Virus record (IMG/VR): IMGVR_UViG_3300020477_000013
Coordinates: 64,001 to 128,000 of that record
Direction: 5' to 3' (one strand)
Source: a virus
Lineage: Duplodnaviria; Caudoviricetes
DNA: 64,000 nucleotides
Shown: one piece after another, positions 4,621 to 26,211 of the stretch
How the letters are laid out: the number at the start of each line of letters is the position of its first letter
How positions within the stretch are numbered: position 1 is the stretch's first letter
The notes under the pieces: generated by a model
What the model was told of the DNA's origin: nothing
Databases searched by the model: none
Seen by the model: the letters and a program-made list of their open reading frames with translations, nothing else
Translations under genes and position numbers: made by a program

Positions 4621-5025
4621 ATGAATATTTTACGAAGATATATTCGTCAAATTCTGCTAGAGGGCTTAGGGACCGTCAACGTTCCAGACGTGGGTAAAAC
4701 GTCTGTGAAAGATTATAAGTCTTCGATGGATTCATCACTAGCAGCAGGAAAACCAGGTATCAAGCAGGTTACATCGCCAGCCGTCGAAGATAACGGCGAT
4801 AAAGAAAATTTGCTAACCGAGCCAGATGAAATAGAGGATGGTGATAGCCAAGAAGAGGTTAACGCTATTTCTACGGGTGGCGCAGCCATGGCATCTTCCG
4901 GTGCAATTCGAGGTGTTACTACACCCCTAGGGACGGATTCAACTTATCCTTCAAAGAAGAAGAAGAAGAAAAAGAAAGCCTCGAAGAAAGGCGATTCGAA
5001 TTGGTACAAGGCTACCACAAATTAA
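4621..5025 (+). CDS. Leader-tagged hypothetical protein with poly-Lys C-terminus
   Basis: MNILRRYIRQILLEG; KKKKKKKKASKK. Confidence 0.75.
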   Translation: MNILRRYIRQILLEGLGTVNVPDVGKTSVKDYKSSMDSSLAAGKPGIKQVTSPAVEDNGDKENLLTEPDEIEDGDSQEEVNAISTGGAAMASSGAIRGVTTPLGTDSTYPSKKKKKKKKASKKGDSNWYKATTN

Positions 5026-6005: not shown

Positions 6006-7202
6006 ATGGCTAGAACTAAGAAAAACCAAAAAGGGATGGACGATTTTACCTCTGACCTGATAAGCTCTCTAAATAAAGAACATGGTGCAAAAATTGCATA
6101 TAATCTTGCTTATGATGTTTCTCCTACACATGTGAAGAGATGGATAAGCACAGGCTCACGTCAGCTTGATTACATCGTGTCAAATAGAGAAAACGGCGGC
6201 CTTCCAGAGGGTAGAATTGTTGAAATATTTGGCCCCCCGTCAATCGGCAAGTCACATCTTGCAATACAGGTGGCTCGATCGACACAACAGTTGGGGGGTA
6301 TTGTTGTATATATTGATACAGAGAACGCGACAAGCGTAGAAAATCTTTCTTTGTTAGGCGTCGATATTAGTAAAAGGTTTGTTTATGTCGACACCCACTG
6401 TACGGAGGAGGTTTTGTCTATTGCTGAGGCAACCATAATGAAAGCCAAAGCCATGGACAAAGATGTTCCTATTACAATTATTTGGGACTCTGTTGCTGCA
6501 TCCTCACCCAAGGCAGAACTAGTTGGTGATTATGATAAAGACTCCATAGGACTACAGGCCCGCGCTATATCAAAGGGTATGCGAAAGATTACGGGTGTGA
6601 TTGCAAACCAGAATGTTTTGTTTGTGATTTTGAATCAGATACGAACAAAGATTGGCGTTATGTTCGGAGACCCGACGACGACGCCAGGAGGAAAGGCAAT
6701 TCCTTTTCATTCTTCTGTGAGAATTAAGCTGGGTGCAGGGCAGAAGATAGAAAATAAAGAAAAAGAGGTTGTTGGAATTCACGTTTCAGCAAAGACAATA
6801 AAAAACAAGGTATCACCACCCTTTAGGTCCGTGGCTTTTGAAATTCACTTTGGTAAAGGGATCAAGGAGCATGAGCAGATATTTGATCTTCTGAGAAAGA
6901 ATGGTCCTGAGATTATTGGGGGAGAAGAAATTTCCATCTCAGGCGCTAGCGCATGGAAGTGTATTACCGTGTCAAATGCTGAGACCGGTGAGGTAAAACT
7001 AGAGAAGAAATTTCACAAAGCAGACTTCCAAGAGATTATAGACGATAATGTCTTTGGTCCGTATGTCGATGCTATGTTAGGGAAAGTGTTTATAAGATCT
7101 AGCGAGTCACCAGCAGATGTGGAGCTTGACGTCAACTCTTATGAAGAGGTAAGGTCTATATCTATTGATATGAAAGATGAGCTAATTGATCCGGAGGGAT
7201 GA
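6006..7202 (+). CDS. recA: RecA/UvsX recombinase
   Basis: Walker A GPPSIGKS; YIDTEN; IIWDSVAA; LNQIR; TTPGGKAIPFHSSVRI. Confidence 0.95.
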   Translation: MARTKKNQKGMDDFTSDLISSLNKEHGAKIAYNLAYDVSPTHVKRWISTGSRQLDYIVSNRENGGLPEGRIVEIFGPPSIGKSHLAIQVARSTQQLGGIVVYIDTENATSVENLSLLGVDISKRFVYVDTHCTEEVLSIAEATIMKAKAMDKDVPITIIWDSVAASSPKAELVGDYDKDSIGLQARAISKGMRKITGVIANQNVLFVILNQIRTKIGVMFGDPTTTPGGKAIPFHSSVRIKLGAGQKIENKEKEVVGIHVSAKTIKNKVSPPFRSVAFEIHFGKGIKEHEQIFDLLRKNGPEIIGGEEISISGASAWKCITVSNAETGEVKLEKKFHKADFQEIIDDNVFGPYVDAMLGKVFIRSSESPADVELDVNSYEEVRSISIDMKDELIDPEG

Positions 7203-12688: not shown

Positions 12689-13591
12689 ATGTTCGGTATG
12701 ATGAGAAAGATATCATATAACAAAAAGTCATCTAAAAAATTAGGTTGGCGCCCTTTCTGGTTTGGGGAAGATGATTTTAGTTCCACATTAATAAAAAAGA
12801 TTAAAGAATTTCAGGAGAGCCATGATCTTAAACCAGATGGCTTGTGCGGAGATGTTACATTTCGCCGTATATATTCTGAGCAAGAGTCCTCTAAGGACGA
12901 AGATACCGGATCACAAATTATAGTCGAGGGAATTCCTATATCGATTCCGTGGGATAAAGTCGTTTCTATAGAGGATCCGGATAATCTTTCATTACCGAGA
13001 AGTTGCTATCGTCATCGAGACAGGCCTGACCCAACACAAATTGTGACGCATTTTGATGTTTGTCTTAGCGCGGCATCATGTAAGCGAGTGTTACAAAAAA
13101 GGGGCCTGTCTAGCCATTTTGTGATTGATAATGACGGTACGATATACCAGATGGTCGATACCGCATATGAGGCATGGCATGCCCCACCCTCGAATAAGAG
13201 AAGTATCGGTATCGACATAAGTAATGCATATTATGTCAAGTACAATAAAACCTATAAGTCTAGGGGGTTTGGGCTCCGCCCTGTTTTAAAAAATCTACCC
13301 TTGCATGGTACAAAGATTAAGGAGTGCCTGGGGTTTTATGATGTTCAAATAGAGGCGTACAAGGTATTACTTAACACACTTTGTGATTTTTATAAGATCC
13401 CAAAAGAGTGTCCGCTAGATGATAATGGAGATCTTCTGAGGGGCGTGTCGAAGGATGCACGGTCCGGGAAGTTTAAGGGCATTGTTTGCCATTATCATTT
13501 AACGAGAAAAAAAATTGACTGTGTTAATTTAGAGTTAAAGCAAGTGTTAGACGAAATGAAGGTCTCCGGTATGAGCAACGATGAAGCCTGA
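12689..13591 (+). CDS. Endolysin: peptidoglycan-binding domain plus N-acetylmuramoyl-L-alanine amidase (Amidase_2)
   Basis: IKEFQESHDLKPDGLCG; IVTHFD; SSHFVIDNDGTIYQ; AWHA; SIGIDI; IVCHY; KIDC. Confidence 0.88.
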   Translation: MFGMMRKISYNKKSSKKLGWRPFWFGEDDFSSTLIKKIKEFQESHDLKPDGLCGDVTFRRIYSEQESSKDEDTGSQIIVEGIPISIPWDKVVSIEDPDNLSLPRSCYRHRDRPDPTQIVTHFDVCLSAASCKRVLQKRGLSSHFVIDNDGTIYQMVDTAYEAWHAPPSNKRSIGIDISNAYYVKYNKTYKSRGFGLRPVLKNLPLHGTKIKECLGFYDVQIEAYKVLLNTLCDFYKIPKECPLDDNGDLLRGVSKDARSGKFKGIVCHYHLTRKKIDCVNLELKQVLDEMKVSGMSNDEA

Positions 13592-14291
13592 ACTAAGGGT
13601 TGAGTTATATGATGACGGCATAGGGGCTGTTGAGTATGTTTCTCATATGGGTGATGATTTAACGATCGTGAATGCAGCACGTGTGTCTTTTGGCAAGCAC
13701 AAGGAAATACTTGATCAAAAAGATGCTAAGCTGATTAGGTATTTAATCAAACATCGTCATACGTCGACGCTGGAGCATAACATTGTCACTTTTCGCTTTA
13801 CTGTACCTCTTTTCATTCGCAGTCAGCATCATCGTCATCGCACTTGGAGCTACAACGAGATCTCTAGACGGTACACGGACGTTGATATCAAATTCTATGA
13901 AACAAAAGCACTCAGGACTCAACATGCATCAAACCGTCAGGCTTCGAATCCGAATGTTTTGCAAGACCCTATTATAGACCCTGGTGGAATAAGCGGCGGG
14001 AATCATGCCAGCTACCTAATTTCATCTCATCACTCTTCTTCTTTGAGGCTATATAATAAACTACTCGACAATGGCGTCTGTAGAGAACAGGCTCGTGGCA
14101 TTTTGCCCCAAAATATGTACACACAATATTATGGTACTGTGAATTTGAATAACCTGATAAAATTTGTAGAGCTGAGATCGCATGAGGGTGCACAATGGGA
14201 GATTCAGCGTGTCGCTGCTGCATGCATACAAATAGCATCTAGCTTGTGGCCTGAAACAATTTGCGCCTACAAAGAGATTAGGGAAATTTAG
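13581..14291 (+). CDS. thyX: Flavin-dependent thymidylate synthase
   Basis: HTSTLEH; RHRTWSYNEISRRY signature; REQARGILP. Confidence 0.95.
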   Translation: MKPELRVELYDDGIGAVEYVSHMGDDLTIVNAARVSFGKHKEILDQKDAKLIRYLIKHRHTSTLEHNIVTFRFTVPLFIRSQHHRHRTWSYNEISRRYTDVDIKFYETKALRTQHASNRQASNPNVLQDPIIDPGGISGGNHASYLISSHHSSSLRLYNKLLDNGVCREQARGILPQNMYTQYYGTVNLNNLIKFVELRSHEGAQWEIQRVAAACIQIASSLWPETICAYKEIREI

Positions 14292-14302
14292 CCTGTGGAT
14301 TG

Positions 14303-14310
14303 ATAATTAT
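14303..14310 (+). promoter_or_regulatory. Putative late promoter (class L)
   Basis: ATAATTAT 19 nt upstream of the GTG at 14330. Confidence 0.5.
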
Positions 14311-14329
14311 TTCAAGCCCGGGGTGTACG

Positions 14330-17300
14330 GTGAGTTCAGAATTTGCTAGTCTCATAAGAAAATATATTGCAGAAGCCAATGATTATTCATGGGATGTTTC
14401 TAACCGCAAAAATATGTTGCTAGATCAACCTGGGATGGAGCAGGAAGATAAGGATAACACTGAGGAGTACCTAAAGTCAATGGGCTTGATGGAAAATATC
14501 ATCGCTCTTTACTTAAGGGGTATTTTAAGTGAGAAAGAACTACGCGGCCAAAAGAGCAAGCGTACACTCTACCACATTGGCAAACGACCAGCAGAGCCGA
14601 AGCCTGCTGAGCGCTGGGGTGCAAAAGGTGAGGAGGGCTGGTCTAGAGACTGGATAGAGGGCCCTGTTAAGTCTGGAGTTTTTTTAACACCCAATCCAAC
14701 AGATATTGCCTGGAATCACGGCGTCAGCGGCAATGTGTATGCCTATAAGGTTCCACAATGGGTTATTGAAAAATCAGGAGGTGTGAACCGTTTTGATACA
14801 GGCTCAGAGATCCTCATATCACAAGAGATATGGGAAGAGGCTGGGGATGAGATAGAATTCTTAGGCAAGACTATGGGCAAAGATGAGTTATGGGACTCGG
14901 TTGACTCGTCTTATTACAGCTCGAAGCAAAAGAAGGGTGTACGTGGCGCACACAAGCATGATGACGGTGCATCTAGCATCTCAGGGCTTAGATCAACCAA
15001 CCACCCCGAAGCTGCGATCAAGATGATGTCTCAAGAAGAGATCGAGAAAGCCCTAGCAAAATTTGAAAATGAGTACGCACAGGAGGGCCCTGCGGAGGTG
15101 GTCAAGGGCCCGCGAGATAAAAAAGGGCTCGTCATCCCCTACCTTGGCAAGCAACCAAGGGGTAAAGACAAAGAGCTTATTGATCTTCTCAACAAGTACA
15201 TGAAGGAGTCGGTTGTTCGACAGTATATAAAGGATCTGCTTGTAGAGGTCCCACTTGATGACTTTGAGTATGTTTCCAAAGACCACGACGATGTAATGGT
15301 CCGAGAAGAGGTTGCTGATTATTTCAAAGCGATACCACAGAGTGTCAACATCTACGTCGCACATACAGACGATCTTAGCTGGGCACATAGGCTGCCAAAC
15401 GAAATACAGGGCAAGGTATCCGGATTTAAAAGTCGAGGCCAGGTCACCCTTACTGATATTTCAAACATCGGAGAGCTATATCCTCAGATACAGAGGGCTA
15501 TGCACCCAGAAGGAATCAATCTTCTCTACGTCTACCCTAAATCTTTTGAAGTTCCTGCCGGCGGTGATACATTCATTGCTGATGTCAACCCCCACTATTT
15601 GGCTCACGATCTTCATCACATGCTTGAGAATGCCCCCGGCCGTGAAAGAGGAGAAAAAGACAAATTCACTTCTCTTATAAAAGAGTATCTGATGGAGCTG
15701 GTCTGGCTGTCTCACGGTGGCGGGTCGGTGGAAGCTGAGCAAGTGCGAGATACAATGCGGAGAACCGGCCGGCGTCTTGGGGTTGCAAATACAAACCTCT
15801 TGATGAGTGAACTGTTTCCAGGCATCAAACTACCCAGTGGTGACTTCGATCTATTTGGTGATGTCTTTGCTGACTACCTGAAGAACGATGGAAACTTAGT
15901 CCTCGGCGTTCCAGAGCAGCTCGATTATGATGGCACAGTCATTGAATTGAATCCCGGCTCTAAGCACGATCAACGAGCGCAGCAATACGAAAAGAAATTT
16001 AAAGATCTGTTCAATGCAGTATTGGATCCGCTCAAGGGAAAGGTGGCAATGTTCAACATCTTCGAGGTCGAACACCGCGAAGTAGAGCGTGCAAGGAAAC
16101 AAGCCGAAGAGAAAATGCAAGCTGACCATGGCCAACTCATCGACCACATTAAGTCTATGGGCGGAGAGTTTAAGTACTTCGACGAAAGCCACAGAGAAGA
16201 GGGTGTCGAGGAGTTGATATTTGACACCGGTCTCAAGCCTGAAAAGCCGGTCTATGGGATCGAAGAGTTCACCCAACAATTTCCAGAAGAGGCGGCTGGC
16301 ATTGAGGCTTTGGGCTACAAGATAACGAGTGCCTTTGACGGGTTCGGGGGTAGCTCTGTGGAGATTAGGCTGAAGATGGCAGGCATCAAAGAGAGCGTTT
16401 TAAGAAAATATATAAGGCAACTACTCAAAGAAGACCCCATGGGCTTTGTTCACGACCTAGCAGCCTCGGATAAGTTCGGCGATCAGTTTAGGGGTGGCCA
16501 AGTTGGTAAAGATGCTGGTCGAGATATCAAGCGCGCTTTCAACAAAAACGCAGACCACCAATTTCTCAGCACGCTGGATACAGTTCACTGGTTTTACACT
16601 GTTTACGACTTAGAGCCCTTGGTAGGAAAAGGTAAAGATGAACTTTCTGCAACAATGACGCTCCCCGGAGATAGCTTTGACCCAGCCGGTCTTCCATACG
16701 GGCTATGGATTAAGGGCAGAATAACACTGGCTACTAATGAACAAGATAAGATGTACTCCGGATTTTATGGGGACTATGGCGCCGGCTATGAAGGATCAGA
16801 AGAGGAAGTTGCTCATAGAGACCGGTCTTCTGGCAGAAATAAACGGCCATCTGTATCAAAAGATTACAGTCGATACGGCCAGCTCGAACGCGGAAATGAA
16901 TACATGGAGAAGATGGCAAGAGATGGTATTCCCTATATCTTAGATCAGTCAACATGGAATCCAGGTAAGACCAGGTCTAATAATGAGGCGCTGGTAGATA
17001 ATTGGAGGCCTATAGGGATCATTGTTGCAAAGAACGACGTTATAAAAGCTATTCTCAAAGCAGCCAAGAAACTTGCTGGAGAAGGTGGTACCCCACCGAG
17101 CGGTAATATTGCCAAAGACATTAATTATTTTTCGACTGGTGTGACACAAGAGATCATACTAGCAGCCCTACAGTTGGGCGTTCCGATTTATGACACGAGT
17201 CGAACAAAGCTATGGGGCCCTCCCACACACCAGAGTGGAACACAAAAAGAGCTCCGCCAGTACGTAAGAGGGCAGTTAATTTTAGAAGATCGAATCCTCC

Positions 17301-17644
17301 AAGAAAACGTTTTCAAGAAAGCGATTTCATGGGTAAAAGAAAAAGGGCAAGCAGGTATAGAGGCAACCCGCGAATTTCTCACTGACCTAAAAGAAGAGTT
17401 ATCAGAAACTAGGGAGGGAGCAGCACTTCTTACGAAACTAGCTTCTGGTAAAAATTTGTCGCCAGAAGAAACTGGATTTCTAAAACAGCAAGCTAAAGAT
17501 GTAGCGTCAGGTACAGTCCTACTAGGCTTGTTTGCCCTTCCGGGTGGTGGGTTGGCTACTGCAGCCCTTTTAAAAGTAGCAGGAAAAGTAGGTGTTAACC
17601 TTAAACCTACAGCATTTAGAGGGAATGATGAAACTACTTCATGA
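14330..17644 (+). CDS. Multidomain putative polyprotein with four internal leader-like motifs (ART-like, HDxxH, ART-like and LETM1-like segments)
   Basis: Motifs at 14489, 15200, 16367 and 17243 separate unrelated domains. The GTG at 14330 is preferred as start because it gives SLIRKYIAE. Confidence 0.8.
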   Translation: MSSEFASLIRKYIAEANDYSWDVSNRKNMLLDQPGMEQEDKDNTEEYLKSMGLMENIIALYLRGILSEKELRGQKSKRTLYHIGKRPAEPKPAERWGAKGEEGWSRDWIEGPVKSGVFLTPNPTDIAWNHGVSGNVYAYKVPQWVIEKSGGVNRFDTGSEILISQEIWEEAGDEIEFLGKTMGKDELWDSVDSSYYSSKQKKGVRGAHKHDDGASSISGLRSTNHPEAAIKMMSQEEIEKALAKFENEYAQEGPAEVVKGPRDKKGLVIPYLGKQPRGKDKELIDLLNKYMKESVVRQYIKDLLVEVPLDDFEYVSKDHDDVMVREEVADYFKAIPQSVNIYVAHTDDLSWAHRLPNEIQGKVSGFKSRGQVTLTDISNIGELYPQIQRAMHPEGINLLYVYPKSFEVPAGGDTFIADVNPHYLAHDLHHMLENAPGRERGEKDKFTSLIKEYLMELVWLSHGGGSVEAEQVRDTMRRTGRRLGVANTNLLMSELFPGIKLPSGDFDLFGDVFADYLKNDGNLVLGVPEQLDYDGTVIELNPGSKHDQRAQQYEKKFKDLFNAVLDPLKGKVAMFNIFEVEHREVERARKQAEEKMQADHGQLIDHIKSMGGEFKYFDESHREEGVEELIFDTGLKPEKPVYGIEEFTQQFPEEAAGIEALGYKITSAFDGFGGSSVEIRLKMAGIKESVLRKYIRQLLKEDPMGFVHDLAASDKFGDQFRGGQVGKDAGRDIKRAFNKNADHQFLSTLDTVHWFYTVYDLEPLVGKGKDELSATMTLPGDSFDPAGLPYGLWIKGRITLATNEQDKMYSGFYGDYGAGYEGSEEEVAHRDRSSGRNKRPSVSKDYSRYGQLERGNEYMEKMARDGIPYILDQSTWNPGKTRSNNEALVDNWRPIGIIVAKNDVIKAILKAAKKLAGEGGTPPSGNIAKDINYFSTGVTQEIILAALQLGVPIYDTSRTKLWGPPTHQSGTQKELRQYVRGQLILEDRILQENVFKKAISWVKEKGQAGIEATREFLTDLKEELSETREGAALLTKLASGKNLSPEETGFLKQQAKDVASGTVLLGLFALPGGGLATAALLKVAGKVGVNLKPTAFRGNDETTS

Positions 17645-18422
17645 ATACATAAGGTCGACCCTAATGTCTGAGTCTAGGTTTAAGCAGATATTTAAACCCA
17701 AATTCACAGACTTACGGCAATACTTAGCGGGGTCTTCTTTTTTGGATGCTGACCCTGCCGGTGATCTAGATGAAGACACATGGTCGTCTGAGGCCGCCGT
17801 GGTACTTAGGGACGATTTAAATGATTATTTCGATTCAAAATTTGAGTCTGGTTATTTGACAGCAATTGTGAAGGTTGATATGGGATGGACAGACCCCAAA
17901 GCTGGTAAAGACAGTGTTCTTAAGAATGCGACATATTACTTCAAGGGTGGCCTTCATTTCCTAGAGGTTATGTTAGCAGATATTGATGATGGTTCTGTCA
18001 TAAGGGACATGGGACGCCCTGAGCAAAAGGTTTACGAAGTTATTTTACACGAGCTTTTACACATGCAACAGTTTTTAAGGTTTAGCAAGGGAGAACCCAC
18101 TGATAAAAAGTGGGAACACTTCATGAAAGAGTATCGCCGCCGCGGCGGAGCATCAGGTATGGGTTCAGATTATTTCTTTTTTGACGAACCTGGTGCTGCA
18201 TCTGAACTTGAGACATTTTCGTTGCAAATTGCTATTGAGCTTGTGGATGCTATTGGTCAGGAGGCTGCTGTCGCAATATTAGGGCAACAACCTGATTATG
18301 ACATGATAAGAAGAAATTCCGCATCATTTAGAGATATTGAGAAAGCAGGTAATCTCACATCACGCCCCGAATTTAAAGAGCTGGTTAAAAGGGCGAAGCA
18401 ATACGCGAGGCTATCATCATGA
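17625..18422 (+). CDS. Leader-tagged zincin-like metallopeptidase
   Basis: MMKLLHEYIRSTLMSE; ILHELLHMQQ (HExxH) plus downstream ELETFS. Confidence 0.65.
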   Translation: MMKLLHEYIRSTLMSESRFKQIFKPKFTDLRQYLAGSSFLDADPAGDLDEDTWSSEAAVVLRDDLNDYFDSKFESGYLTAIVKVDMGWTDPKAGKDSVLKNATYYFKGGLHFLEVMLADIDDGSVIRDMGRPEQKVYEVILHELLHMQQFLRFSKGEPTDKKWEHFMKEYRRRGGASGMGSDYFFFDEPGAASELETFSLQIAIELVDAIGQEAAVAILGQQPDYDMIRRNSASFRDIEKAGNLTSRPEFKELVKRAKQYARLSS

Positions 18423-19231
18423 AATTACTACGTGAATACATAAGAACACTGTTAACCGAGCGTAATACGATGAAGCGCCCAACCGTGGGAGCAATTCTAG
18501 ACGCGATAGATGTTGTCCAAGCAGCCGAAGATGAAGAAGCAAAGAAGAAGGCCTTAAAAAAGCTTGAGAAGTCCCTGGGGTGGAAAGTAGCTAAGATGCT
18601 AGCAGGACCATTCGGCGATGCAGTTAGCATTGCAAAAGATGCCGCTGGAGTATATAAGACATTAAAGGATACAAAGAAGGCTCCTGAAAAGATGGATAAC
18701 CCTATCCTGGACTTACTTCAAGTCGATTCAGGTTATAAAAACATGTTAGACGACTCAGTCGAGTTCGAATTTGATAAAGATATGGTAAGTTATTTAAACA
18801 GCTTACCTCGAGAAGCACCACTTCCTGATATGACCGTGGAGCTTGAGAAATGGATACAGAAGAAGTTTAATAGGGGAATTTCTGGTGCTGATGTAACAGA
18901 GGTTATTTTTCGTAAGCATATAGGAAACTTAATTCGAGAAGCGATTGAAAATGAAAGTCAGTTCCGTGAGCTTTTGGAGGCTGGTCATTTTGATCAAGCC
19001 ATAGCCTTGGCAGATTCATTAGGCATCAGTGGAAGAGAACTACCTTGGACTGGTGAGCTCTTAGAAGATTACGTGTATGAGAAACTGAAGAACATTCCAA
19101 TAGATGCGTACGATGATGCCAAATTAGTTTGGCACCAGGCCAAAATTGATGCGCTAAATGTTCTAGATATTAGTCTAGAAGAGTACATGGGGCCTAGTCC
19201 ACTAATGATGTATTACAACTCTAGACGATAG
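18419..19231 (+). CDS. Leader-tagged hypothetical protein with a second internal motif
   Basis: MKLLREYIRTLLTE; internal FRKHIGNLIREAIENE. Confidence 0.75.
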   Translation: MKLLREYIRTLLTERNTMKRPTVGAILDAIDVVQAAEDEEAKKKALKKLEKSLGWKVAKMLAGPFGDAVSIAKDAAGVYKTLKDTKKAPEKMDNPILDLLQVDSGYKNMLDDSVEFEFDKDMVSYLNSLPREAPLPDMTVELEKWIQKKFNRGISGADVTEVIFRKHIGNLIREAIENESQFRELLEAGHFDQAIALADSLGISGRELPWTGELLEDYVYEKLKNIPIDAYDDAKLVWHQAKIDALNVLDISLEEYMGPSPLMMYYNSRR

Positions 19232-19242
19232 AGGGAAATGGT

Positions 19243-19485
19243 ATGAAAATAACAAAGCGACAACTTAAAAATCTTATTCGAGAAGCATTCTGGGACAAGA
19301 AGCCTCCTGCTCCCGCGGCCGGATCGGACAAGTTCATGAACCCCCTGTCAGCAGCGTCGGAGTCCATGAGGGAAGTCATATCAGCTCTATGGGGCCCATG
19401 GGACGATCCTCCCCGGCCTGATTTACTAAAGAAAGCTCAAGCTTTGGCTAAAGAAATTGATGAAGCTTCAAAGGACCAGATATGA
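19243..19485 (+). CDS. Leader-tagged small protein
   Basis: MKITKRQLKNLIREA; RBS GAGGG. Confidence 0.8.
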   Translation: MKITKRQLKNLIREAFWDKKPPAPAAGSDKFMNPLSAASESMREVISALWGPWDDPPRPDLLKKAQALAKEIDEASKDQI

Positions 19486-19772
19486 AAATCACCAAACGGC
19501 AACTAAGAAGAATCATCCGAGAAGAAATAGACCACATGACTGGTTTACCAGTGGGTACACCAGTGACCTCGGTTGAGGTTGAGTGGTATGGCCATGAGCA
19601 CACTGAGGGTGAAGGGATTAGCTACGCTGTCCCCACCGAGGTTGTCCTACAGGGTGAGAAGGTGATTCGTAACTATATCGATGGCAAGTTTTACCCTCGA
19701 TACAAGTACCTTATCACGAAGGCAACATGGCGCGAGATCGATGCGCTCATGGGGGATGACTGGAAGCGATGA
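19482..19772 (+). CDS. Leader-tagged small protein
   Basis: MKITKRQLRRIIREE; ATGA overlap. Confidence 0.8.
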   Translation: MKITKRQLRRIIREEIDHMTGLPVGTPVTSVEVEWYGHEHTEGEGISYAVPTEVVLQGEKVIRNYIDGKFYPRYKYLITKATWREIDALMGDDWKR

Positions 19773-20035
19773 AAATCACAAAAAGACAACTAAGAAGAAT
19801 CATCAAAGAAGAATTGCGGCATCTGGCTGAGTACGGATCTCGCTATGGCGATCAAGGCGAGCGAGTCACTGCCGATATGAATGATGAAGAAAAAGAGTGG
19901 TTCCAGAAAGGCGTCGAGGCTGGTAGCCATAGAGGATCCGGTTATGATGATATGCCACATCCCACCACCGCCGGCGGAGCCTGGTATGATGCATGGGTGC
20001 TTGGCTTCGAACATGCCAAGTCAGGAGGCTACTAA
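19769..20035 (+). CDS. Leader-tagged small protein
   Basis: MKITKRQLRRIIKEE; ATGA overlap. Confidence 0.8.
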   Translation: MKITKRQLRRIIKEELRHLAEYGSRYGDQGERVTADMNDEEKEWFQKGVEAGSHRGSGYDDMPHPTTAGGAWYDAWVLGFEHAKSGGY

Positions 20036-20382
20036 TGAAAATCACAAAAAGACAACTTAGATCGCTGATTCAGGAAATGGCAGATGCTCCCCTAGAGCCA
20101 CCTGCGCAGAACCCAAACGTTCAAATTATCTTAGATCAAATGGAAGAGATGTCAATAGCCGATATTCGAGTCATATGGCAAGCCGCTGCCGATACAACCA
20201 AGCGAAAGCGAAATGAATTAAAGGCCGGTTTCAAAAAAGGTGACCGGGTCCAATGGACTCGTAAGAACGGCTCGCAAGGAGTGGGGACTGTTGTTCGCCG
20301 CGGAGGAAAGTACGTCATGGTTCAACCTGACGGTGATAATCGAACATGGAAAAAATGGCCGGATAGTTTGAGTAAGATATAA
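20035..20382 (+). CDS. Leader-tagged small protein with SH3/KOW-like C-terminal domain
   Basis: True start at 20035 (TAATG overlap, RBS AGGAGG); MKITKRQLRSLIQE; FKKGDRVQW...GTVVRRGGKYVMV. Confidence 0.75.
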   Translation: MKITKRQLRSLIQEMADAPLEPPAQNPNVQIILDQMEEMSIADIRVIWQAAADTTKRKRNELKAGFKKGDRVQWTRKNGSQGVGTVVRRGGKYVMVQPDGDNRTWKKWPDSLSKI

Positions 20383-20789
20383 TGAAACTACTCCGCGAGT
20401 ACATAAGGGTTTTACTCGAGCAGCCCGATATCGGATTGCCTCCGACGCTGTACCATGCGACTTATGGTCCTTTAGTTGACTCGATCATGTCATCTGGCTT
20501 AGGTGGATCCAGAGATACAATGTGGGAAGATTCTGTGAGAGGTACTGTTTATCTTGCACTAAGTGATGACGTTGCTTATAGCTATGCTGAAACTTCCGAC
20601 GACGCATGGGATAAGTTTGAGACTGATGAAGGGCTGGAGATTGTAGTATTCGAAGTTGACACTTCTCAACTTGATCCATCTAAATTTAACATAGATCAGA
20701 ATGTCATAGATAACGAGGGAGACACTTTAGGGTATTATGGTGTCGTACCTCCTTCTGCGCTTAGGATGATCAGTAGAGTGTACGCATGA
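20382..20789 (+). CDS. Leader-tagged Tpt1/KptA-like ADP-ribosyltransferase-fold protein
   Basis: MKLLREYIRVLLE; LYHAT...SIMSSGL...VYLA...VVFEVD...VPPSAL. Confidence 0.65.
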   Translation: MKLLREYIRVLLEQPDIGLPPTLYHATYGPLVDSIMSSGLGGSRDTMWEDSVRGTVYLALSDDVAYSYAETSDDAWDKFETDEGLEIVVFEVDTSQLDPSKFNIDQNVIDNEGDTLGYYGVVPPSALRMISRVYA

Positions 20790-21604
20790 AACTACTACGT
20801 GAATACATAAGAAGTCTGCTGATTGAGACTGCGATAGGTCAGTGTTATCCGCATGTCGTTAAGATGGCCAAGGGTTCTTCTCAAGAAGAATTCTCAGACC
20901 TAGCCAGATTCAAAGTAGCTCATGGTAGAGTGACAGACAAGTATTCAGGTGAATCAGTTCTACATGCCTGGGTTGAAAAAGGCGATATGGTTTTCGATTG
21001 GCAGACACATTCCACCAAACCTGATGGTATTCCGAAAGATGTCTACTACGACATGTACGCACCAGAAATCCACAACGAATACACAGCCGAAGAGACCATG
21101 GTCAACTGTTTGAAAAGTGGCCAGGCCGGCCCATGGACTTTGAGAGAGTCTACAGGGATAATAGAAGACGGTTGGCCTGGGGTTACATGGAAAGTCCAGA
21201 ATTATGGGAACGGTATCTCCGTTGTCTTAATGATGAGTGGGCAAAAGATGGGAAGCATCATAGCTCGGGAAGTTTCGCGCTGGAAATACTGTGCCGATGA
21301 CGTAGAGAAGTTAAAGGCACAAGGGTATGATTACGAAGACCCACGCTGGCCATCATTAGGACCTAAACTTTTCGCGGTAGGTAATTCTGCAATCGACCAA
21401 GCATTCCGGGGCCAAGGCTGGGGAAAGAAGATGTATAAAGTCCTGATCGACACCATCCGCCAAGAAGCAGGCCGCCGGGGTGCATTTATCGGCGCAGATG
21501 TATGTACAGGCGGATCAACCTCGAAAGGTGCCTTAGGCGTATGGAGATCATTGGCCAGGGACTATCCATCATCCGGTAACGTAGTCTACGTGGGGCCGAA
21601 ATGA
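20786..21604 (+). CDS. Leader-tagged two-domain protein: papain/transglutaminase-like plus GNAT acetyltransferase
   Basis: MKLLREYIRSLLIE; GQCY...HAWVE...VFD (C-H-D); IDQAFRGQGWGKKMY (GNAT motif A). Confidence 0.65.
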   Translation: MKLLREYIRSLLIETAIGQCYPHVVKMAKGSSQEEFSDLARFKVAHGRVTDKYSGESVLHAWVEKGDMVFDWQTHSTKPDGIPKDVYYDMYAPEIHNEYTAEETMVNCLKSGQAGPWTLRESTGIIEDGWPGVTWKVQNYGNGISVVLMMSGQKMGSIIAREVSRWKYCADDVEKLKAQGYDYEDPRWPSLGPKLFAVGNSAIDQAFRGQGWGKKMYKVLIDTIRQEAGRRGAFIGADVCTGGSTSKGALGVWRSLARDYPSSGNVVYVGPK

Positions 21605-22134
21605 AACTACTCCGCGAGTACATAAGGTCACTACTGAGTGAGAGGATAGCATCCACTTATGGTAAGCAGAGCCAGACGCCTGGCAAGAAGAATGTGTACC
21701 GTGGAATGAAACTTACAATGCCTAGCGCATCCCTGGCATCAGCAATTCGCAAGGGTAAAATTAGTGGAGACGAGCGAGCAAGATTAATCCTCGGACAATT
21801 GCAAAATGAGTCCACAGGTGTTTCATGGTCCGAGACTTTTCATACCGCCGTTAGTTTTGCTGATACATGGAGTGCCTCGAATAGAGGTAAAACGATTCAT
21901 GTAATCCTACAGGCTACTATCGACGACGGGCAGGGCTTTGATCCAATTACTACAGGCCAAGAACCTCGGATGTTCTGGGATGAAAACGAAATAAGGATGG
22001 AGCCTGGAGCAACTATACCAATTACAGCGATATATTTATTCATCAAAGGAAAAGATAAATTCGCACCTCAAAAACTACAGTTTCATATTATTACATTGAA
22101 AGACGAAGAAAATCCACTGATGGTGAAAGCATGA
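21601..22134 (+). CDS. Leader-tagged R-S-E class ADP-ribosyltransferase
   Basis: MKLLREYIRSLLSE; VYRG ... GVSWS...AVSFA ... DENEI. Confidence 0.72.
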   Translation: MKLLREYIRSLLSERIASTYGKQSQTPGKKNVYRGMKLTMPSASLASAIRKGKISGDERARLILGQLQNESTGVSWSETFHTAVSFADTWSASNRGKTIHVILQATIDDGQGFDPITTGQEPRMFWDENEIRMEPGATIPITAIYLFIKGKDKFAPQKLQFHIITLKDEENPLMVKA

Positions 22135-22655
22135 ACCTATTACGTGAGTACATAAGGGAGTTATTAGGTGAAGGTGTAGAATTCAGGGAGCTTGATTCTC
22201 CCCTGACATATTATCGATCTAGCAATGTAAAGAGACTGGCTTTATGCGATACGTCTGTAGATGAACCTGCCAGCAGGAGTGATCTTTACTTTTCAGAATA
22301 CCAAGAAATGGAATACGTCGGCAGATCTGGTCGAAGATTAAAGAAACCCAGGAAAGGACAGTTGATACCCGGCGTTTCTGATGTCTGCGTTATTGGGTTC
22401 TTGGACTATCACCAGCAAGGCACCACCCGTGATGGTAAGCCAATGTGGTATTTAGACTATATAAAAACTCGTGGAGGCCACGGTGGGCAAAAGGTGGCTA
22501 GCCGTCTAGTAGACGAGTTTTTCAATCGATATGTAACCGATCCAGGTGTACACGTACACTTCGGAAAGATGATGCGTAAGGAGGTTGGCCACCTAAAAGA
22601 TAAGATGGCAAAGAAATACCCTGACAACATCGTCATTGGGGCAAGGAATTACTGA
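22131..22655 (+). CDS. Leader-tagged GNAT-like protein
   Basis: MNLLREYIRELLGE; VIGFLDY...WYLDYIKTRGGHGGQKVASRLV. Confidence 0.55.
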   Translation: MNLLREYIRELLGEGVEFRELDSPLTYYRSSNVKRLALCDTSVDEPASRSDLYFSEYQEMEYVGRSGRRLKKPRKGQLIPGVSDVCVIGFLDYHQQGTTRDGKPMWYLDYIKTRGGHGGQKVASRLVDEFFNRYVTDPGVHVHFGKMMRKEVGHLKDKMAKKYPDNIVIGARNY

Positions 22656-23473
22656 TGAACCTACTCCGCGAATACATAAGATCACTTCTGGTTGAAGACG
22701 CAGCTAAGCGCAAACAGTTCGCTCAACACCTTATTGATGCAGGTCACTCTGAGGCAAATTTTGACACGCCTGATGTAGTCGGCCACAGTATTGACAAGGT
22801 GAAGAAGCTCGTTAAGACTGCTCTCGATCAAGGCAAGCTTCTCAAAAAGGCTTTCGCCGAAACTGCAGACAGGGCTTTCCTCGATAGCTTAGTCACAGTT
22901 CACTGGTTCAAAACCAGAAAGACGATGGAGGCATTTTTAGAAGGATCATTTAGTCCCAAGGATGAATTATCAGCCACGGCTTACCTACCGGGTGAAATAA
23001 AAGGCGCCGGCAGGTTTGGTGATTATGGAATCCTTATCAAGGGCCATATCACTCTTTTGGCAAACGACATGGATCAACTCTACACAGGGGCTTCCAGCAC
23101 TTACAATGCAGTGTTTCCTGAAAGAAAGAAGCAGTCTGGCATTAACAAGGGTGTCGAGCAGATATATGAACCAAAAGGTTACGAAGACTATAAGATCGTT
23201 GTGCTTGACGAAGAAGATTGGAACCCCTCTATTGGTGGCTTCCGCAGCTCACAGAATAATGAGGCGCTCGTCGACAACTGGTCTCCGATGGCAATTATCG
23301 TCCCTGACTCTTCAAATCAGCCAGGTTACTGGGATGAAGATTTACAAAAGATGGAACCTGCCGGCCCTGATACAGCGGAAGCCGATATCATTTGGAAACC
23401 GCTACTAGACAAGGCCGGCCTGGATATCCCAGTTATGACAACAAGGGAGCTTGTATCGAGAGGCTGGGTATAA
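22655..23473 (+). CDS. Leader-tagged ART-like protein, paralog of segment 4 of the 14330 protein
   Basis: MNLLREYIRSLLVE; TVHWF...KDELSA...IKGHITL...NNEALVDNW. Confidence 0.7.
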   Translation: MNLLREYIRSLLVEDAAKRKQFAQHLIDAGHSEANFDTPDVVGHSIDKVKKLVKTALDQGKLLKKAFAETADRAFLDSLVTVHWFKTRKTMEAFLEGSFSPKDELSATAYLPGEIKGAGRFGDYGILIKGHITLLANDMDQLYTGASSTYNAVFPERKKQSGINKGVEQIYEPKGYEDYKIVVLDEEDWNPSIGGFRSSQNNEALVDNWSPMAIIVPDSSNQPGYWDEDLQKMEPAGPDTAEADIIWKPLLDKAGLDIPVMTTRELVSRGWV

Positions 23474-23601
23474 AAATAACAAATACAAAGTGTCATGAAG
23501 CATATGCAATGACTATTTATCTAATCAAAACGATATTACATGCATATAATGTTGATAGTGGCTTTGGATATGCTTAGGGCTATGAAAAAACGGGTGGTAA
23601 T

Positions 23602-24234
23602 ATGAGAATAGCAAAAAATCAACTTAGAAGAATCATCAAAGAACAGATGAAGTCTTGGAAAGAACGACAGGCCGAGCTGGACGCATGGGAGAAAAAGCTA
23701 GTTGCTGCACTTCCAAAAGACCCTTCGAAAATGAGTAATGCTGACCACAAAAAAGTTGCACAGCTCTTTATCGATGAATATGGCCTAGATCAAGCAGACG
23801 CTTTTTATGAAGATGACCGAGGTACATTGGCAGACTTAGGGGTTACACCATATCCTGATCTCGAAAACATCCGCATGGCCATCATGATGGCACTGGATAA
23901 AGATCATAAAAAACGAGTTAATGCTTCTCCTCATAAAAAAGAACTTAGGGCCATCGGGGGTGACAGCTACGGTGCAGTCGAGCCTCGTGAGGTAGCGTAC
24001 TTGACATACCAACCTATTCGTAAGGGTGGTAAAGTTGTAGCATTCATGGTCGAAGACAGCGAGACTCCATGGGGTACAATGCCTCTCGGCCATTCAAGCT
24101 TTGTCGTTGATGAACAATGGGCGAAACAGTCCGGGACAACGGTGGACAAGATTATAAAAGTGTTAGAGAAGGGCGGTGCAACTTTGAGAAAGCGCCGTAA
24201 GCCAGTTAAGAGAACAACTCCATACTACGACTAG
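23602..24234 (+). CDS. Leader-tagged hypothetical protein
   Basis: MRIAKNQLRRIIKEQ. Confidence 0.75.
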   Translation: MRIAKNQLRRIIKEQMKSWKERQAELDAWEKKLVAALPKDPSKMSNADHKKVAQLFIDEYGLDQADAFYEDDRGTLADLGVTPYPDLENIRMAIMMALDKDHKKRVNASPHKKELRAIGGDSYGAVEPREVAYLTYQPIRKGGKVVAFMVEDSETPWGTMPLGHSSFVVDEQWAKQSGTTVDKIIKVLEKGGATLRKRRKPVKRTTPYYD

Positions 24235-24242
24235 CAGGCAAA

Positions 24243-24575
24243 ATGAAATTAAATAGAGATGATATATCAGGTGACGTGGTAAAAAATAATGACACGTATA
24301 TCGTGGTTGATAACACGAACCTCACAGGCCTTGTTGTTTCTAAAACCATATTGCACCCAAAGAAAGAGACCACGGGGCATAGCCATGCGGGCCAAGAAGA
24401 GGTGTATCAATTTGTGTACGGAACTGGTAAAATGCAGGTCGGACAAAACAAATTCGATGTCAACTCTGGCGATATCGTGTTAATCCCTGATGGCTTGTTT
24501 CACAAGGTGTGGAATATATCATGTGTAGAAGACCTAACATTTGTATGTGTTTTTGACGGAAAGAGGAGTCATTAG
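24243..24575 (+). CDS. Cupin-domain protein
   Basis: GHSHAGQEEVY...GDIVLIPDGLFHKV. Confidence 0.85.
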   Translation: MKLNRDDISGDVVKNNDTYIVVDNTNLTGLVVSKTILHPKKETTGHSHAGQEEVYQFVYGTGKMQVGQNKFDVNSGDIVLIPDGLFHKVWNISCVEDLTFVCVFDGKRSH

Positions 24576-24580
24576 TAAAA

Positions 24581-24714
24581 ATGCTTAAGCTAATATTGTG
24601 CGGTATAGCTATTATTATTATTCTCTATGCCGTATCAGATGGGGATTAGCTATATGGGTTGTGGCAATTGGTTATTTTGTGGGAAATGTAGTATGTAAAG
24701 CAGGGGAAATATGA
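24581..24714 (+). pseudogene. Small two-TM membrane protein interrupted by an apparent 1-nt frameshift in a G4 tract
   Basis: MLKLILCGIAIIIILYAVSDG stops at 24649. The -1 frame continues GLAIWVVAIGYFVGNVVCKAGEI to a TGA overlapping the next ATG. Confidence 0.4.
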
Positions 24715-25010
24715 GTAATTTTGGAATTAGCATTGATGCTTTTGAGAAAGACGAAGAAATGGAAGGGACTGTTTTTGAGTTATATGAAAAGCTTCCGAAT
24801 CGTGAATTTAAGAGCCATATTCAGTTTATAAGGGCTGATAGTTTAAGGGATGCTGAAGATAAGACTGCCGAGGTTAATCCGGATTATTGGCGAACACAGT
24901 CGATACGGTCAGTCGGTGTCACATATGTGTGGGATACATTCACACAGCTCTACTATTCATATCATATGGCCAAGTCAGCATTAGGTTTGGATAAATTGAC
25001 GGATGAGTAA
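24711..25010 (+). CDS. Hypothetical protein
   Basis: ORF with RBS-like AGGGG. Confidence 0.7.
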   Translation: MSNFGISIDAFEKDEEMEGTVFELYEKLPNREFKSHIQFIRADSLRDAEDKTAEVNPDYWRTQSIRSVGVTYVWDTFTQLYYSYHMAKSALGLDKLTDE

Positions 25011-25016
25011 AGTAAT

Positions 25017-25460
25017 ATGGAACTTCTTCGTGAGTATGTTAGGACATTATTAGAACAACACACCCAATCAGAGGACCCCTCTTCGGCCGAGCCTTTAAAC
25101 GGTGCTGTGACGGTCGCTGGGATCCCTATTAGCGTTGAAATTGCATCTACTCCAAAATTAAGAAAAGCCGGCCTAATGAACCGAGCGCATCTTGAGCGTG
25201 GAATGCTTTTTTGCTTTCCTGATTGCCGCCCTAGATCATTTTGGATGAAAAATACGCATGTGCCACTGTCGATAGCTTATGCAGATGATAACGGCATTAT
25301 AACAAATATAGAAGACATGGATCCGCATAGTCTCACCGGTGTAAAGTCAATAACTCCAGCTACTTATGCTTTGGAGATGGAGCAGGGGTGGTTTGATAAA
25401 AATGGGGTAGTTCCAGGAGACAAGATTGGGGGTCGCAATGTCAGAAAAAGTAAAAGTTAG
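25017..25460 (+). CDS. Leader-tagged DUF192 family protein
   Basis: MELLREYVRTLLEQ; VEIA...GLMNR...GMLF...FWMKNT..PLSIAY...ALEM. Confidence 0.85.
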   Translation: MELLREYVRTLLEQHTQSEDPSSAEPLNGAVTVAGIPISVEIASTPKLRKAGLMNRAHLERGMLFCFPDCRPRSFWMKNTHVPLSIAYADDNGIITNIEDMDPHSLTGVKSITPATYALEMEQGWFDKNGVVPGDKIGGRNVRKSKS

Positions 25461-26211
25461 GGGCTATATGAAGCCGGCCGCTAGTTTTCATACGTTGGTA
25501 GAGTGGGATATTGTTGTAGCACAGTTACTAGAGCTTCAGCATGAGGGAATTGACACTCGAGGTGGAATAGTACAAGATCAAAGGTTGATAGATATTTTAA
25601 ATAATTTCTTCGGATATCAGCTTATCGATGAGGTGGCTAGGTGGGATTTACTAACACAAAAAAATGTGCTTGACTTTATCGAGGACTTTGTCAATCATAG
25701 GTTTTGGAGTTTTGAGAGAGAATATTCACATTATTTTCCTGATATTAACAGGCTTAAATTCGCATATTTCTATTCTAGGGGTGACATGGAACCATATGTG
25801 ATGCTTGATGATGAGTATACTATCCAGCTTTATGGTTCCACATATAATCCTAAGCTGTTATGTCACTATACCACCGAAGAGGGTGCAAAGAGACTGTCTG
25901 ATGCAATATCGAGAGGTATAGAATATGACATATCAAGCTTTACAGTGATGGATCGCCCATTTTTTAGGAAAGAGTCGAATGTGCTGGTAACGTTTATAGG
26001 GAATGTTAGAGCAGGATTCAGGAGTGACATTAAATCGATGGCACTTGATACGGGTCGCCGAGCATGCAACATGTATCGACTTGAGTACCCGGGTAGGGAC
26101 ATTAATAATATATGTTATGAACTTGACACGTGCGATTCTGATGTAAGGACTAGCTTGTGGAATGAGTACATTGCTACGCCTATTGAGATAGTAGGAATTT
26201 CGTCGAGGTAG
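25438..26211 (+). CDS. Hypothetical protein, possibly with an ART-like C-terminal half
   Basis: LCHYTT...ISSFT...WNEYIA pattern; weak. Confidence 0.55.
   Translation: MSEKVKVRGYMKPAASFHTLVEWDIVVAQLLELQHEGIDTRGGIVQDQRLIDILNNFFGYQLIDEVARWDLLTQKNVLDFIEDFVNHRFWSFEREYSHYFPDINRLKFAYFYSRGDMEPYVMLDDEYTIQLYGSTYNPKLLCHYTTEEGAKRLSDAISRGIEYDISSFTVMDRPFFRKESNVLVTFIGNVRAGFRSDIKSMALDTGRRACNMYRLEYPGRDINNICYELDTCDSDVRTSLWNEYIATPIEIVGISSR

Follow-up and report, generated by a model that had tools for sequence, protein, structure and literature searches.

Leader-Bearing Protein Loci in T4 and Other Phages

The internal proteins of phage T4 (IPI–III and Alt) are non-essential and are encoded in hyperplastic loci, where unrelated proteins share only a short N-terminal leader ending in the (L/I)xE site of the gp21 protease, and where gene number, order and identity vary among relatives (Mullaney and Black 1996; Repoila et al. 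1994; as reported in PMC3012670, PMC12373910 and PMC2839356). These capsid-targeting leaders, 10–20 residues long, bring the proteins into the prohead core and are cleaved by gp21 (PMC5694885, PMC3012670). The tag reads MKTYQEFIAE in T4 (PMC8442874), and ITE and LTE are the sites of cleavage in Alt (ITE-6 and LTE-619; PMC5694885). Here, an array of eleven leader-tagged genes at 17625–23473 is described in a viral DNA window of 64,000 nucleotides (nt), bases 64001–128000 of a 201,585-bp IMG/VR record (G000, completeness estimate 73%). Positions are those of the window unless G000:C1 or a contig name is given; G001 is a complete relative of 284 kb, and L-numbers denote related contigs or pieces of contigs. 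The best overall explanation, and a reasonably probable one, is that the region serves as the cargo locus for a marine jumbo phage whose head is of the T4 type.

The likeness to the T4 loci extends to unrelated proteins standing under one leader that ends in (L/I)xE, to the presence of a gp21-family protease, to the varying number, order and identity of the genes and, as with Alt, to at least one cargo type that is ADP-ribosyltransferase(-like), packaging being predicted here. In contrast to T4, with its three or four tagged genes, each genome has dozens of them, in at least two leader dialects; moreover, the leader doubles as a polyprotein linker, and gene and polyprotein forms interconvert. 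Because the array genes overlap, there is no place between them for promoter or stem-loop elements like those at the T4 loci.

It has already been proposed that conserved elements flanking T4-type accessory and internal-protein genes are recombination joints, and these have been likened to integrons (PMC2839356; for internal-protein leaders, PMC12373910). The idea of the leader as a joint is not new in kind, the T4 internal-protein loci and PeSL shuffling being the closest precedents. In RB49 and phi1, PeSLs are short repeats that flank accessory open reading frames (ORFs), with insertions, deletions and replacements ending in the repeats and no dedicated recombinase known (Arbiol et al. 2010, PMC2839356). 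While PeSLs are ~100-bp intergenic promoter-plus-terminator cassettes, the repeat in the present array is the first 27–45 nt of the coding sequence and has a peptide function instead of a role as a transcription signal. What is new relative to both precedents is that the repeats lie within coding sequence and that separate genes and polyproteins interconvert.

A repeated intergenic promoter and stem-loop of the PeSL type was not found at the array, where the genes overlap and neither promoter-like nor terminator-like sites are in clear excess (sigma-70 promoter-like sites, 32 against 28.5 in shuffled sequences; terminator-like sites, 19 against 12.5). The T4 late promoter TATAAATA occurs three times in 201 kb, with no copy near the arrays or the head genes.

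Organization of the Array

A preliminary description of this DNA had presented the region as a coupled cassette array whose repeated unit is the gene start itself. All of the overlaps that it listed are real (ATGA at 18419, 19482, 19769, 20786, 21601 and 22131; TAATG at 20035 and 20382; TGATG at 22655). The array genes overlap by 1–4 nt, and the sole gap comprises 11 nt at 19232–19242, before gene 19243. The first array gene (ATG at 17625 or 17628) overlaps the 3´ end of a 1114-aa ORF with its stop at 17644. Along the array, the tags follow the order MKLL, MKLL, four MKIT and five MKLL. The features of the array and of the two tagged genes downstream are as follows:

17628..18422, + strand: tagged cassette, MKLLHEYIR...; cargo with an HExxH motif (Pfam SprT-like, E = 8e-4, below the curated cut-off)
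18419..19231, + strand: tagged cassette MKLLREYIRTLLTE; 33-nt leader stretch that recurs unchanged on a different cargo at L025 9375
19243..19485, + strand: small MKIT-tagged cassette; homologue at another place in L065
19482..19772, + strand: small MKIT-tagged cassette
19769..20035, + strand: small MKIT-tagged cassette; exact 23-nt repeat in common with gene 20035
20035..20382, + strand: MKIT-tagged cassette a20035 (alignments A2 and A4); different next gene in three phages
20382..20789, + strand: MKLL-tagged cassette c20382; first 27 nt the same as in gene 21601; missing between a20035 and c21601 in G001
20382..20408, + strand: 27-nt leader repeat, copy 1; left end of the 1219-bp segment missing in G001
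20786..21604, + strand: MKLL-tagged two-domain cassette (N and C domains); decayed leader-like joint near 21137–21160
21601..22134, + strand: MKLL-tagged cassette c21601, probable R-S-ExE ADP-ribosyltransferase (alignment A6, AlphaFold2 (AF2) model)
21601..21627, + strand: 27-nt leader repeat, copy 2; right end of the 1219-bp segment missing in G001
22131..22655, + strand: MKLL-tagged cassette c22131; other neighbours in at least nine distinct contigs
22655..23473, + strand: MKLL-tagged cassette c22655, ADP-ribosyltransferase-like fold (AF2 model, PDB matches)
23602..24234, + strand: MKIT-like tagged gene MRIAKNQLRRIIKE (a23602), after a 128-nt gap
25017..25460, + strand: MKLL-like tagged gene MELLREYVRTLLEQ with a DUF192 cargo (Pfam PF02643, 96.6 bits)

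The three DNA repeats reported at the gene starts were recovered. The 27-mer is exact at 20382 and 21601, with a further copy at 22655 carrying three mismatches and no match in 100 shuffles, and exact copies of the 23-mer stand at 19769 and 20035. Those of the 18-mer, also exact, lie inside genes 19482 and 19769 at positions 19500 and 19787.

Nine genes of the 201-kb record, all of which lie within the window, begin with the MKLL leader, MKLLREYIRxLLxE; this leader has three more copies internal to the 1114-aa ORF and a looser copy near the start of that ORF. The MKIT leader, MKITKRQLRRIIKEE, is found at 32 gene starts in the record, mostly in a second array. Leaders end in LLxE or IIKE in nearly all cases, the exceptions being 20382 and 25017, which end in LLEQ. 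Other genes across the window begin with looser versions, which are basic-hydrophobic and likewise end in (L/I)xE, and tagged proteins make up about one sixth of the ORFs. The array stands as first described, but the extent of the tagging had been drawn too narrowly: the description left out the three leader copies inside ORF 14300–17644, tagged genes at 4621, 23602 and 25017, and the second array beyond the window.

Leaders as Joints among Related Phages

Comparison with related phages indicates that the leaders are the joints where modules are inserted, deleted, reordered, fused, split or given another leader type, a conclusion that is well supported. Gene order, whose constancy among relatives the preliminary description had regarded as evidence against a cassette array, is not fixed: G000 adjacencies are retained in 5 of 25 contig tests, and four of these five come from one phage sampled four times. 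Cassettes are present or absent among relatives with joints at the leaders, as had been anticipated, including a 1219-bp indel flanked by the exact 27-nt repeat.

The core genes of G000 and G001 are collinear, with a median amino-acid identity of 45% over 60 genes. The 13.5 kb that contain the array (~12.7–26.2 kb) are missing at the syntenic site of G001, while array modules are found elsewhere in that genome in another order. Array orthologues are 62–86% identical between the two phages, as against the core median of 45%. When homology blocks are drawn against three relatives, 21 of 26 block ends fall within −30 to +45 nt of a leader, such windows covering ~14% of the region. Three of the block-end positions fall inside the G000 polyprotein, where no gene boundary exists.

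The gene that follows a20035 is c20382 in G000, c21601 in G001 and c22655 in the Tara contig L065 (alignments A2 and A4), the last being 90% identical to G000 at the nucleotide level. G000 therefore has nested extra segments of 1219 bp and 2273 bp that run from leader to leader; the corresponding indels, 20382–21601 (against G001) and 20382–22655 (against L065), end in leader repeats. The 1219-bp segment with its 27-nt flanks is the footprint expected of single-crossover insertion of a leader-bearing circle, and it is also a substrate for deletion.

Exchange of leaders and domains is also observed. The cargo of a20035 bears an MKLL leader in IMGVR_UViG_3300025133_000063. The N domain of gene 20786 is joined to a different C domain in G001, while in L005 a leader stands directly on the C domain (96% nucleotide identity). 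For these comparisons, cargo segments were assigned by reference-module mapping; single-linkage clustering merged all of them into one family through domain shuffling. In three pairs with changed context, the leader is far more diverged than the cargo (52 vs 83%, 57 vs 73% and 74 vs 91%), whereas in the kept-context pair a23602 the leader is at 100% and the cargo at 93%. Other changed-context pairs, such as c21601 and the N domain of c20786 against G001, do not display leader-over-cargo divergence.

A HAD-like N-terminal domain is fused via an internal leader to three modules (c21601-like, c22131-like and M3-like, M3 being the third module of the polyprotein described below) in three related phages: L024 9269–10468, L030+L039 (reverse strand) and L060 (reverse strand).

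The differences in order could, in principle, be assembly artefacts, that is, chimeric joins at repeated leaders. The Logan contigs, as which the runs with window DNA were read, do break at leader repeats and contain many short-sided joints; those with sides of 23–45 nt, about the length of a leader, are unusable as evidence of deletions or circles. However, two array arrangements were each recovered at 99.99–100% identity from four metagenomes, and contigs of run X1, produced by another assembler and perhaps from the source sample, bridge 17628–19243, 20382/20786 and 21601/22131/22655 without difference. Furthermore, the L065 and L069 junctions come from k127 contigs, in which the k-mer (per the contig names) would exceed any exact leader repeat seen here. 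An artefactual origin of the rearrangements is, thus, highly improbable.

The Leader as a Polyprotein Linker

The same leader motif is found within the long ORF upstream of the array:

14300..17644, + strand: 1114-aa polyprotein with four modules (M1–M4); leader-like linkers at ~14489–14533, 15206–15250, 16391–16435 and 17243–17287

The modules of this polyprotein occur split, permuted or re-fused in L006, L005 and L025. While M1-M2-M3-M4 are fused in G000, M1 is joined to a new tail in G001, where M2-M3 form a separate gene starting MLLHEYIR. The module order is M3-M2 in L005, and in L025 an MKIT-type leader precedes M3. This module, a paralogue of gene 22655, is the sole one with a fold assignment, which was made through the paralogue.

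The ORF fits the idea of polyvalent proteins (Iyer et al. 2017, PMC5512222), multi-domain effectors, probably delivered from the head, in which ADP-ribosyltransferase and metallopeptidase-like domains are found together with other conflict domains, delivery being a prediction in the present case. Unlike polyvalent proteins, its modules are bounded by a repeated protease-site leader and are also found as single genes in a coupled array.

Conservation of Leader DNA at Synonymous Sites

The leader DNA had been said to be conserved beyond what codon bias predicts, and this was borne out. Among the seven MKLL leaders of the array, the same codon is used at the same residue 107 times, where the codon usage of the genome predicts 63.5. 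The corresponding figures for the five MKIT-type leaders in the window are 62 observed and 34.1 predicted, the pairs being non-independent in both counts. In 87 N-terminal MKLL leaders from 29 contig pieces, Tyr is encoded by TAC in 75 of 87 cases and Ile by ATA in 72 of 81, each codon accounting for about one third genome-wide. Another tally of N-terminal leaders gives TAC in 73 of 89 and ATA in 79 of 85. The codons GAR-TAC-ATA-AGR are held at synonymous sites across the clade, while the flanking Leu codons vary much more.

The internal MKLL leaders share this bias (ATA in 17 of 19 and TAC in 16 of 23), which is, therefore, not simply an effect of translation start. The conservation of TAC-ATA-AGR could be due to homology maintenance, to an RNA or DNA signal, or to the avoidance of TATA-like strings. 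Leader similarity is 0.535 within contigs and 0.488 between contigs (permutation p = 0.003).

Probable Head Loading and Cleavage

It is likely, judging from its motif and by analogy with T4, that the leader is a head tag and a protease site. The leader would act like the T4 capsid-targeting sequence and carry the protein into the prohead core; a gp21-family protease would then remove it after the final Glu, and the cargo would remain in the head to be injected with the DNA. If every leader were cleaved, it would matter little whether the cargos are made as separate coupled genes or as one polyprotein.

Both forms of the leader end in (L/I)xE, the cut motif of T4 gp21. By eye, MKLLREYIR shares M-K-x-x-(Q/R)-E-(F/Y)-I with the T4 tag, a motif too short for statistics. 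The head module of G000 is T4-like according to Pfam and PHROG, with a large terminase, a gp20-like portal, a gp21-family prohead protease and a gp23-like capsid protein. The protease, encoded at G000:C1:30278-30880, matches PF03420 at 92.3 bits, over the cut-off, and the PHROG head maturation protease; a protease of this family is also present in six of the six other leader-bearing jumbo contigs tested (seven of seven with G000). Small genes right after the protease gene bear similar leaders. In the AF2 models of c21601 and c22655, the leader is predicted to be a helix, and in c21601 the confidence falls below a pLDDT of 50 at residues 13–19, across the proposed cut after Glu14.

Processing of many head proteins by a gp21-related protease is known for the head and ejection proteins of SPN3US and phiKZ (PMC5694885), among which the paralogues gp53 and gp54 have an identical 15-residue N-terminus at 34% overall identity. 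Unlike the leaders described here, the SPN3US and phiKZ propeptides are mostly longer than 100 residues and carry an (A/S)xE motif, and cassette shuffling at the propeptide is not described for them (PMC5694885).

An alternative is that the leader is not a capsid tag but a shared N-terminal element of another sort, for instance a helix for oligomerisation or docking, a signal for localisation or an enhancer of translation start. Packaging and cleavage are predicted, and tagged proteins at about one sixth of the ORFs are many for the contents of a head. The predicted complex of the protease with the first 45 residues of c21601 scored 0.00, which is uninformative either way. Nevertheless, the motif also links modules within polyproteins, as makes sense for a cut site but not for a start signal, and the internal copies have the same codon bias. 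In addition, the motif has the gp21-type (L/I)xE at its end, is similar to the T4 tag, co-occurs with a gp21-family protease in all seven jumbo contigs tested, and has similar counterparts on small genes beside the protease; heads of giant phages that contain about 50 protein species are known (PMC7411985). Such another role for the leader is, on this evidence, unlikely.

Leader DNA as a Possible Recombination Joint

The preliminary description had gone further and proposed that the leader DNA is a homology joint for RecA/UvsX-mediated insertion, deletion and swapping of cassettes. Each cassette consists of a short amphipathic leader and an unrelated cargo domain. In the mechanism preferred here, 20–45 nt of similar leader DNA would be a portable homology patch for the general recombination system of the phage. 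One crossover, whether the partner is a circle carrying a leader or another phage, would insert a cassette between two leader copies, and a crossover between neighbouring leaders would delete one. The candidate enzyme for such exchanges is the product of a gene in the window:

6006..7202, + strand: RecA/UvsX-like recombinase gene (Pfam RecA, 216.6 bits; PHROG UvsX-like recombinase, E = 1.8e-72)

This proposal held in part. The presence and absence of cassettes at leaders, the indel with 27-nt flanks and the RecA/UvsX-like gene agree with it, but the sole recent crossover that was mapped lies within a cargo. That the leader DNA is the actual recombination substrate is plausible, with roughly even odds. 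The fuller proposal is that the head-loading, cleaved leader and the recombination site are the same 27–45 nt, so that effectors are shuffled in frame across the clade and arrays and polyproteins are interchangeable without an integrase; this we regard as falling a little short of an even chance.

Several points weigh against these proposals. First, leaders lie at gene or domain starts, where selection for intact modules would also put joints; therefore, any shuffling filtered by such selection yields the same joint positions. Second, the within-contig excess of leader similarity is small. Third, the synonymous sites of MKIT leaders are mixed, with codons 5 and 13 at expectation (saturated) and GAA fixed in 32 of 32, a pattern that looks like site-specific constraint and not recent conversion alone; the combination of saturated and fixed sites therefore suggests a mix of site-specific constraint and some homogenisation. 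Fourth, the only very recent exchange that was mapped (L069 against G000 and L072) crossed over at nt 128–215 of the cargo and not in the leader. Fifth, all of the relatives are metagenome assemblies, and leader repeats can mislead assemblers. Finally, as regards the head, the presence of the tagged proteins in the virion and their cleavage are predictions from sequence.

An alternative explanation is that the leader is kept for its protein function only, with illegitimate or microhomology recombination occurring anywhere and selection retaining whole leader-plus-cargo units. Both models predict similar joints, as leaders are gene or domain starts; some joints lie at a decayed leader or at none (21151/21158, 23307 and 14895), and codon conservation is site-specific rather than uniform. 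However, the junctions are clean, with no partial leaders and no remnants of neighbouring genes, an exact 27-nt direct repeat stands on both sides of the 1219-bp indel, and a leader stretch of 33 nt is identical on two different cargos in two phages (gene 18419 and L025 9375). T4-type recombination reportedly needs less than 50 bp of homology (PMC2839356, citing Singer 1982). This explanation is, thus, fairly unlikely, though it is to be reckoned with.

The mosaic formed by L069, L070 and L072 shows that strains found together still exchange DNA by ordinary homologous recombination. Starting at nt 128 of gene 21601, the Tara contig L069 matches the window at 100% identity as far as the contig end at 22863, and L070 is identical to ~22756; both have a different upstream gene, and the first 127 nt of gene 21601 are 7% diverged in them. 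L069 and L070 are 99% identical to each other, with all nine mismatches within nt 1–127. These contigs were considered as a case of a breakpoint inside the leader, which was rejected when the comparison with L072 placed the recent crossover at nt 128–215 of the cargo. The older junction at the leader start is bounded but not pinned.

The likeness to integrons and CALIN lies in the compact, same-orientation cassettes of variable content, and the preliminary description had spoken of an integron-like array with no integrase. The lack of an integrase was confirmed as far as searched: neither a tyrosine recombinase (PF00589) nor a serine recombinase (PF00239) was found in G000 (73% complete), and the complete G001 likewise lacks PF00589, while positive controls worked. 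A site-specific cassette system, whether of the attC-plus-integrase type or another, would suit the tight packing of the cassettes. However, the nine junctions fold no better than shuffled DNA (z from −1.8 to +1.1) and contain no recurring inverted repeats. An attC/integrase system was, therefore, rejected, there being no attC-like hairpins at the nine junctions and no integrase gene, and site-specific systems in general are largely refuted, with next to no probability left to them. Unlike in integrons and CALIN, where IntI and attC hairpins are expected, exchange in this array would use general homologous recombination.

If this reading as a whole holds, it would account for the way in which large phages assemble and renew extensive sets of injected proteins with no recombinase dedicated to the task: a new cargo recombining at the leader would acquire its start codon, coupled translation, a tag for head loading and a cut site at once.

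Cargos of the Array

The MKLL cargos match different families or folds, namely ADP-ribosyltransferase-like proteins, DUF192 and an HExxH protein, and the cargos of the 32 MKIT genes are without mutual similarity. Searches of Pfam with the array-region proteins gave the weak SprT-like match and DUF192 and nothing else, and no PHROG family was found for any array protein.

At least two cargos, c21601 and c22655, look like ADP-ribosyltransferases, although the fold matches of their models are moderate and not decisive. The cassette c21601 is a probable R-S-ExE ADP-ribosyltransferase: R34-G35, S75-W76 and E128-x-E130 are invariant among 12 homologues (alignment A6), giving the motif R, S-W-S/T and E-x-E. 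Its AF2 model (pLDDT 81) has ADP-ribosyltransferase toxins as top PDB matches, which are moderate (Rhs TreX, probability 0.96 and E = 0.024; toxins overall, E = 0.02–0.04 and TM 0.34–0.53), and there is no Pfam match. For c22655 (AF2 model pLDDT 78), the best PDB matches all belong to the ADP-ribosyltransferase superfamily (CteC, Z 7.0; Tpt1, 6.6; SopF, 5.4; DarT, 5.4); H83, S106 and E203 are invariant in its family, the 79 homologues of which are all unnamed. Both families, made up of unannotated marine proteins, were missed by Pfam and PHROGs.

These cargos fit an injected arsenal. The leader is a simple sequence handle for candidate injected effectors or anti-defence proteins in uncultured marine phages, the two ADP-ribosyltransferase-like families being examples.

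The diversity of the cargos also bears on whether the array is an ordinary family of tandem paralogues that arose by duplication and then diverged fast outside a constrained N-terminus. The small acidic MKIT genes could have arisen by tandem duplication, and leaders are slightly more alike within a contig than between contigs. Nevertheless, the cargos belong to different folds and families, the MKIT cargos lack any similarity to each other, and the same cargo occurs with different leaders and in different fusion states, making such a family very unlikely.

In the c22655 family (alignment A3, 32 sequences), two leader dialects are found, MKLLREYIRxLLxED and MKLIMEQWRKYLxED, one per group, and all of the sequences end the leader in an invariant Glu-Asp. 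These dialects would fit co-evolution with the head machinery of each phage lineage. In L027 492–1732, on a 6-kb viral contig, two consecutive genes start with MKLTEAKLKQMI(L/K)E, one of them with a distant c22655-like cargo (35% identity); this leader may be a third dialect.

Genomic Context and Further Leader Arrays

The runs that hold window DNA are marine metagenomes. The window also encodes a DnaB-like helicase, a ribonucleotide reductase and a DnaE-type polymerase. Judged by its capsid protein, the closest phage in culture is Flavobacterium phage immuto (48.6%), in which MKLL-type leader DNA was looked for and not found; this phage is, therefore, not a ready model. In a phage collection, a megablast of 17000–24500 and a tblastn of gene 20786 gave no match.

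The array sits in a hyperplastic island within the replication module. The 13.5-kb block at ~12700–26200 comprises an amidase, ThyX, the polyprotein, the array and the DUF192 gene, and its bounding core genes are just 1.1 kb apart in G001.

The second array lies at G000:C1:146500-161200, 18–33 kb past the end of the window (L067), and consists of ~27 consecutive small, mostly acidic genes with a MKITKRQLRRIIKEEKARLL leader. One ORF of 551 aa in this array has an internal leader copy, and the best matches of the second-array genes in G001 are scattered and out of order. A degenerate pattern of the leader DNA was found in 37 stretches on 30 IMG/VR contigs.

Finally, at window positions 19421–19837, the summed contig depth is 4–20x that of neighbouring bins in four marine metagenomes, and dozens of metagenome contigs begin or stop at 19769 and 19812. 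The depth excess together with the contig ends at an MKIT leader therefore indicates that this leader is a very abundant repeat in these communities.

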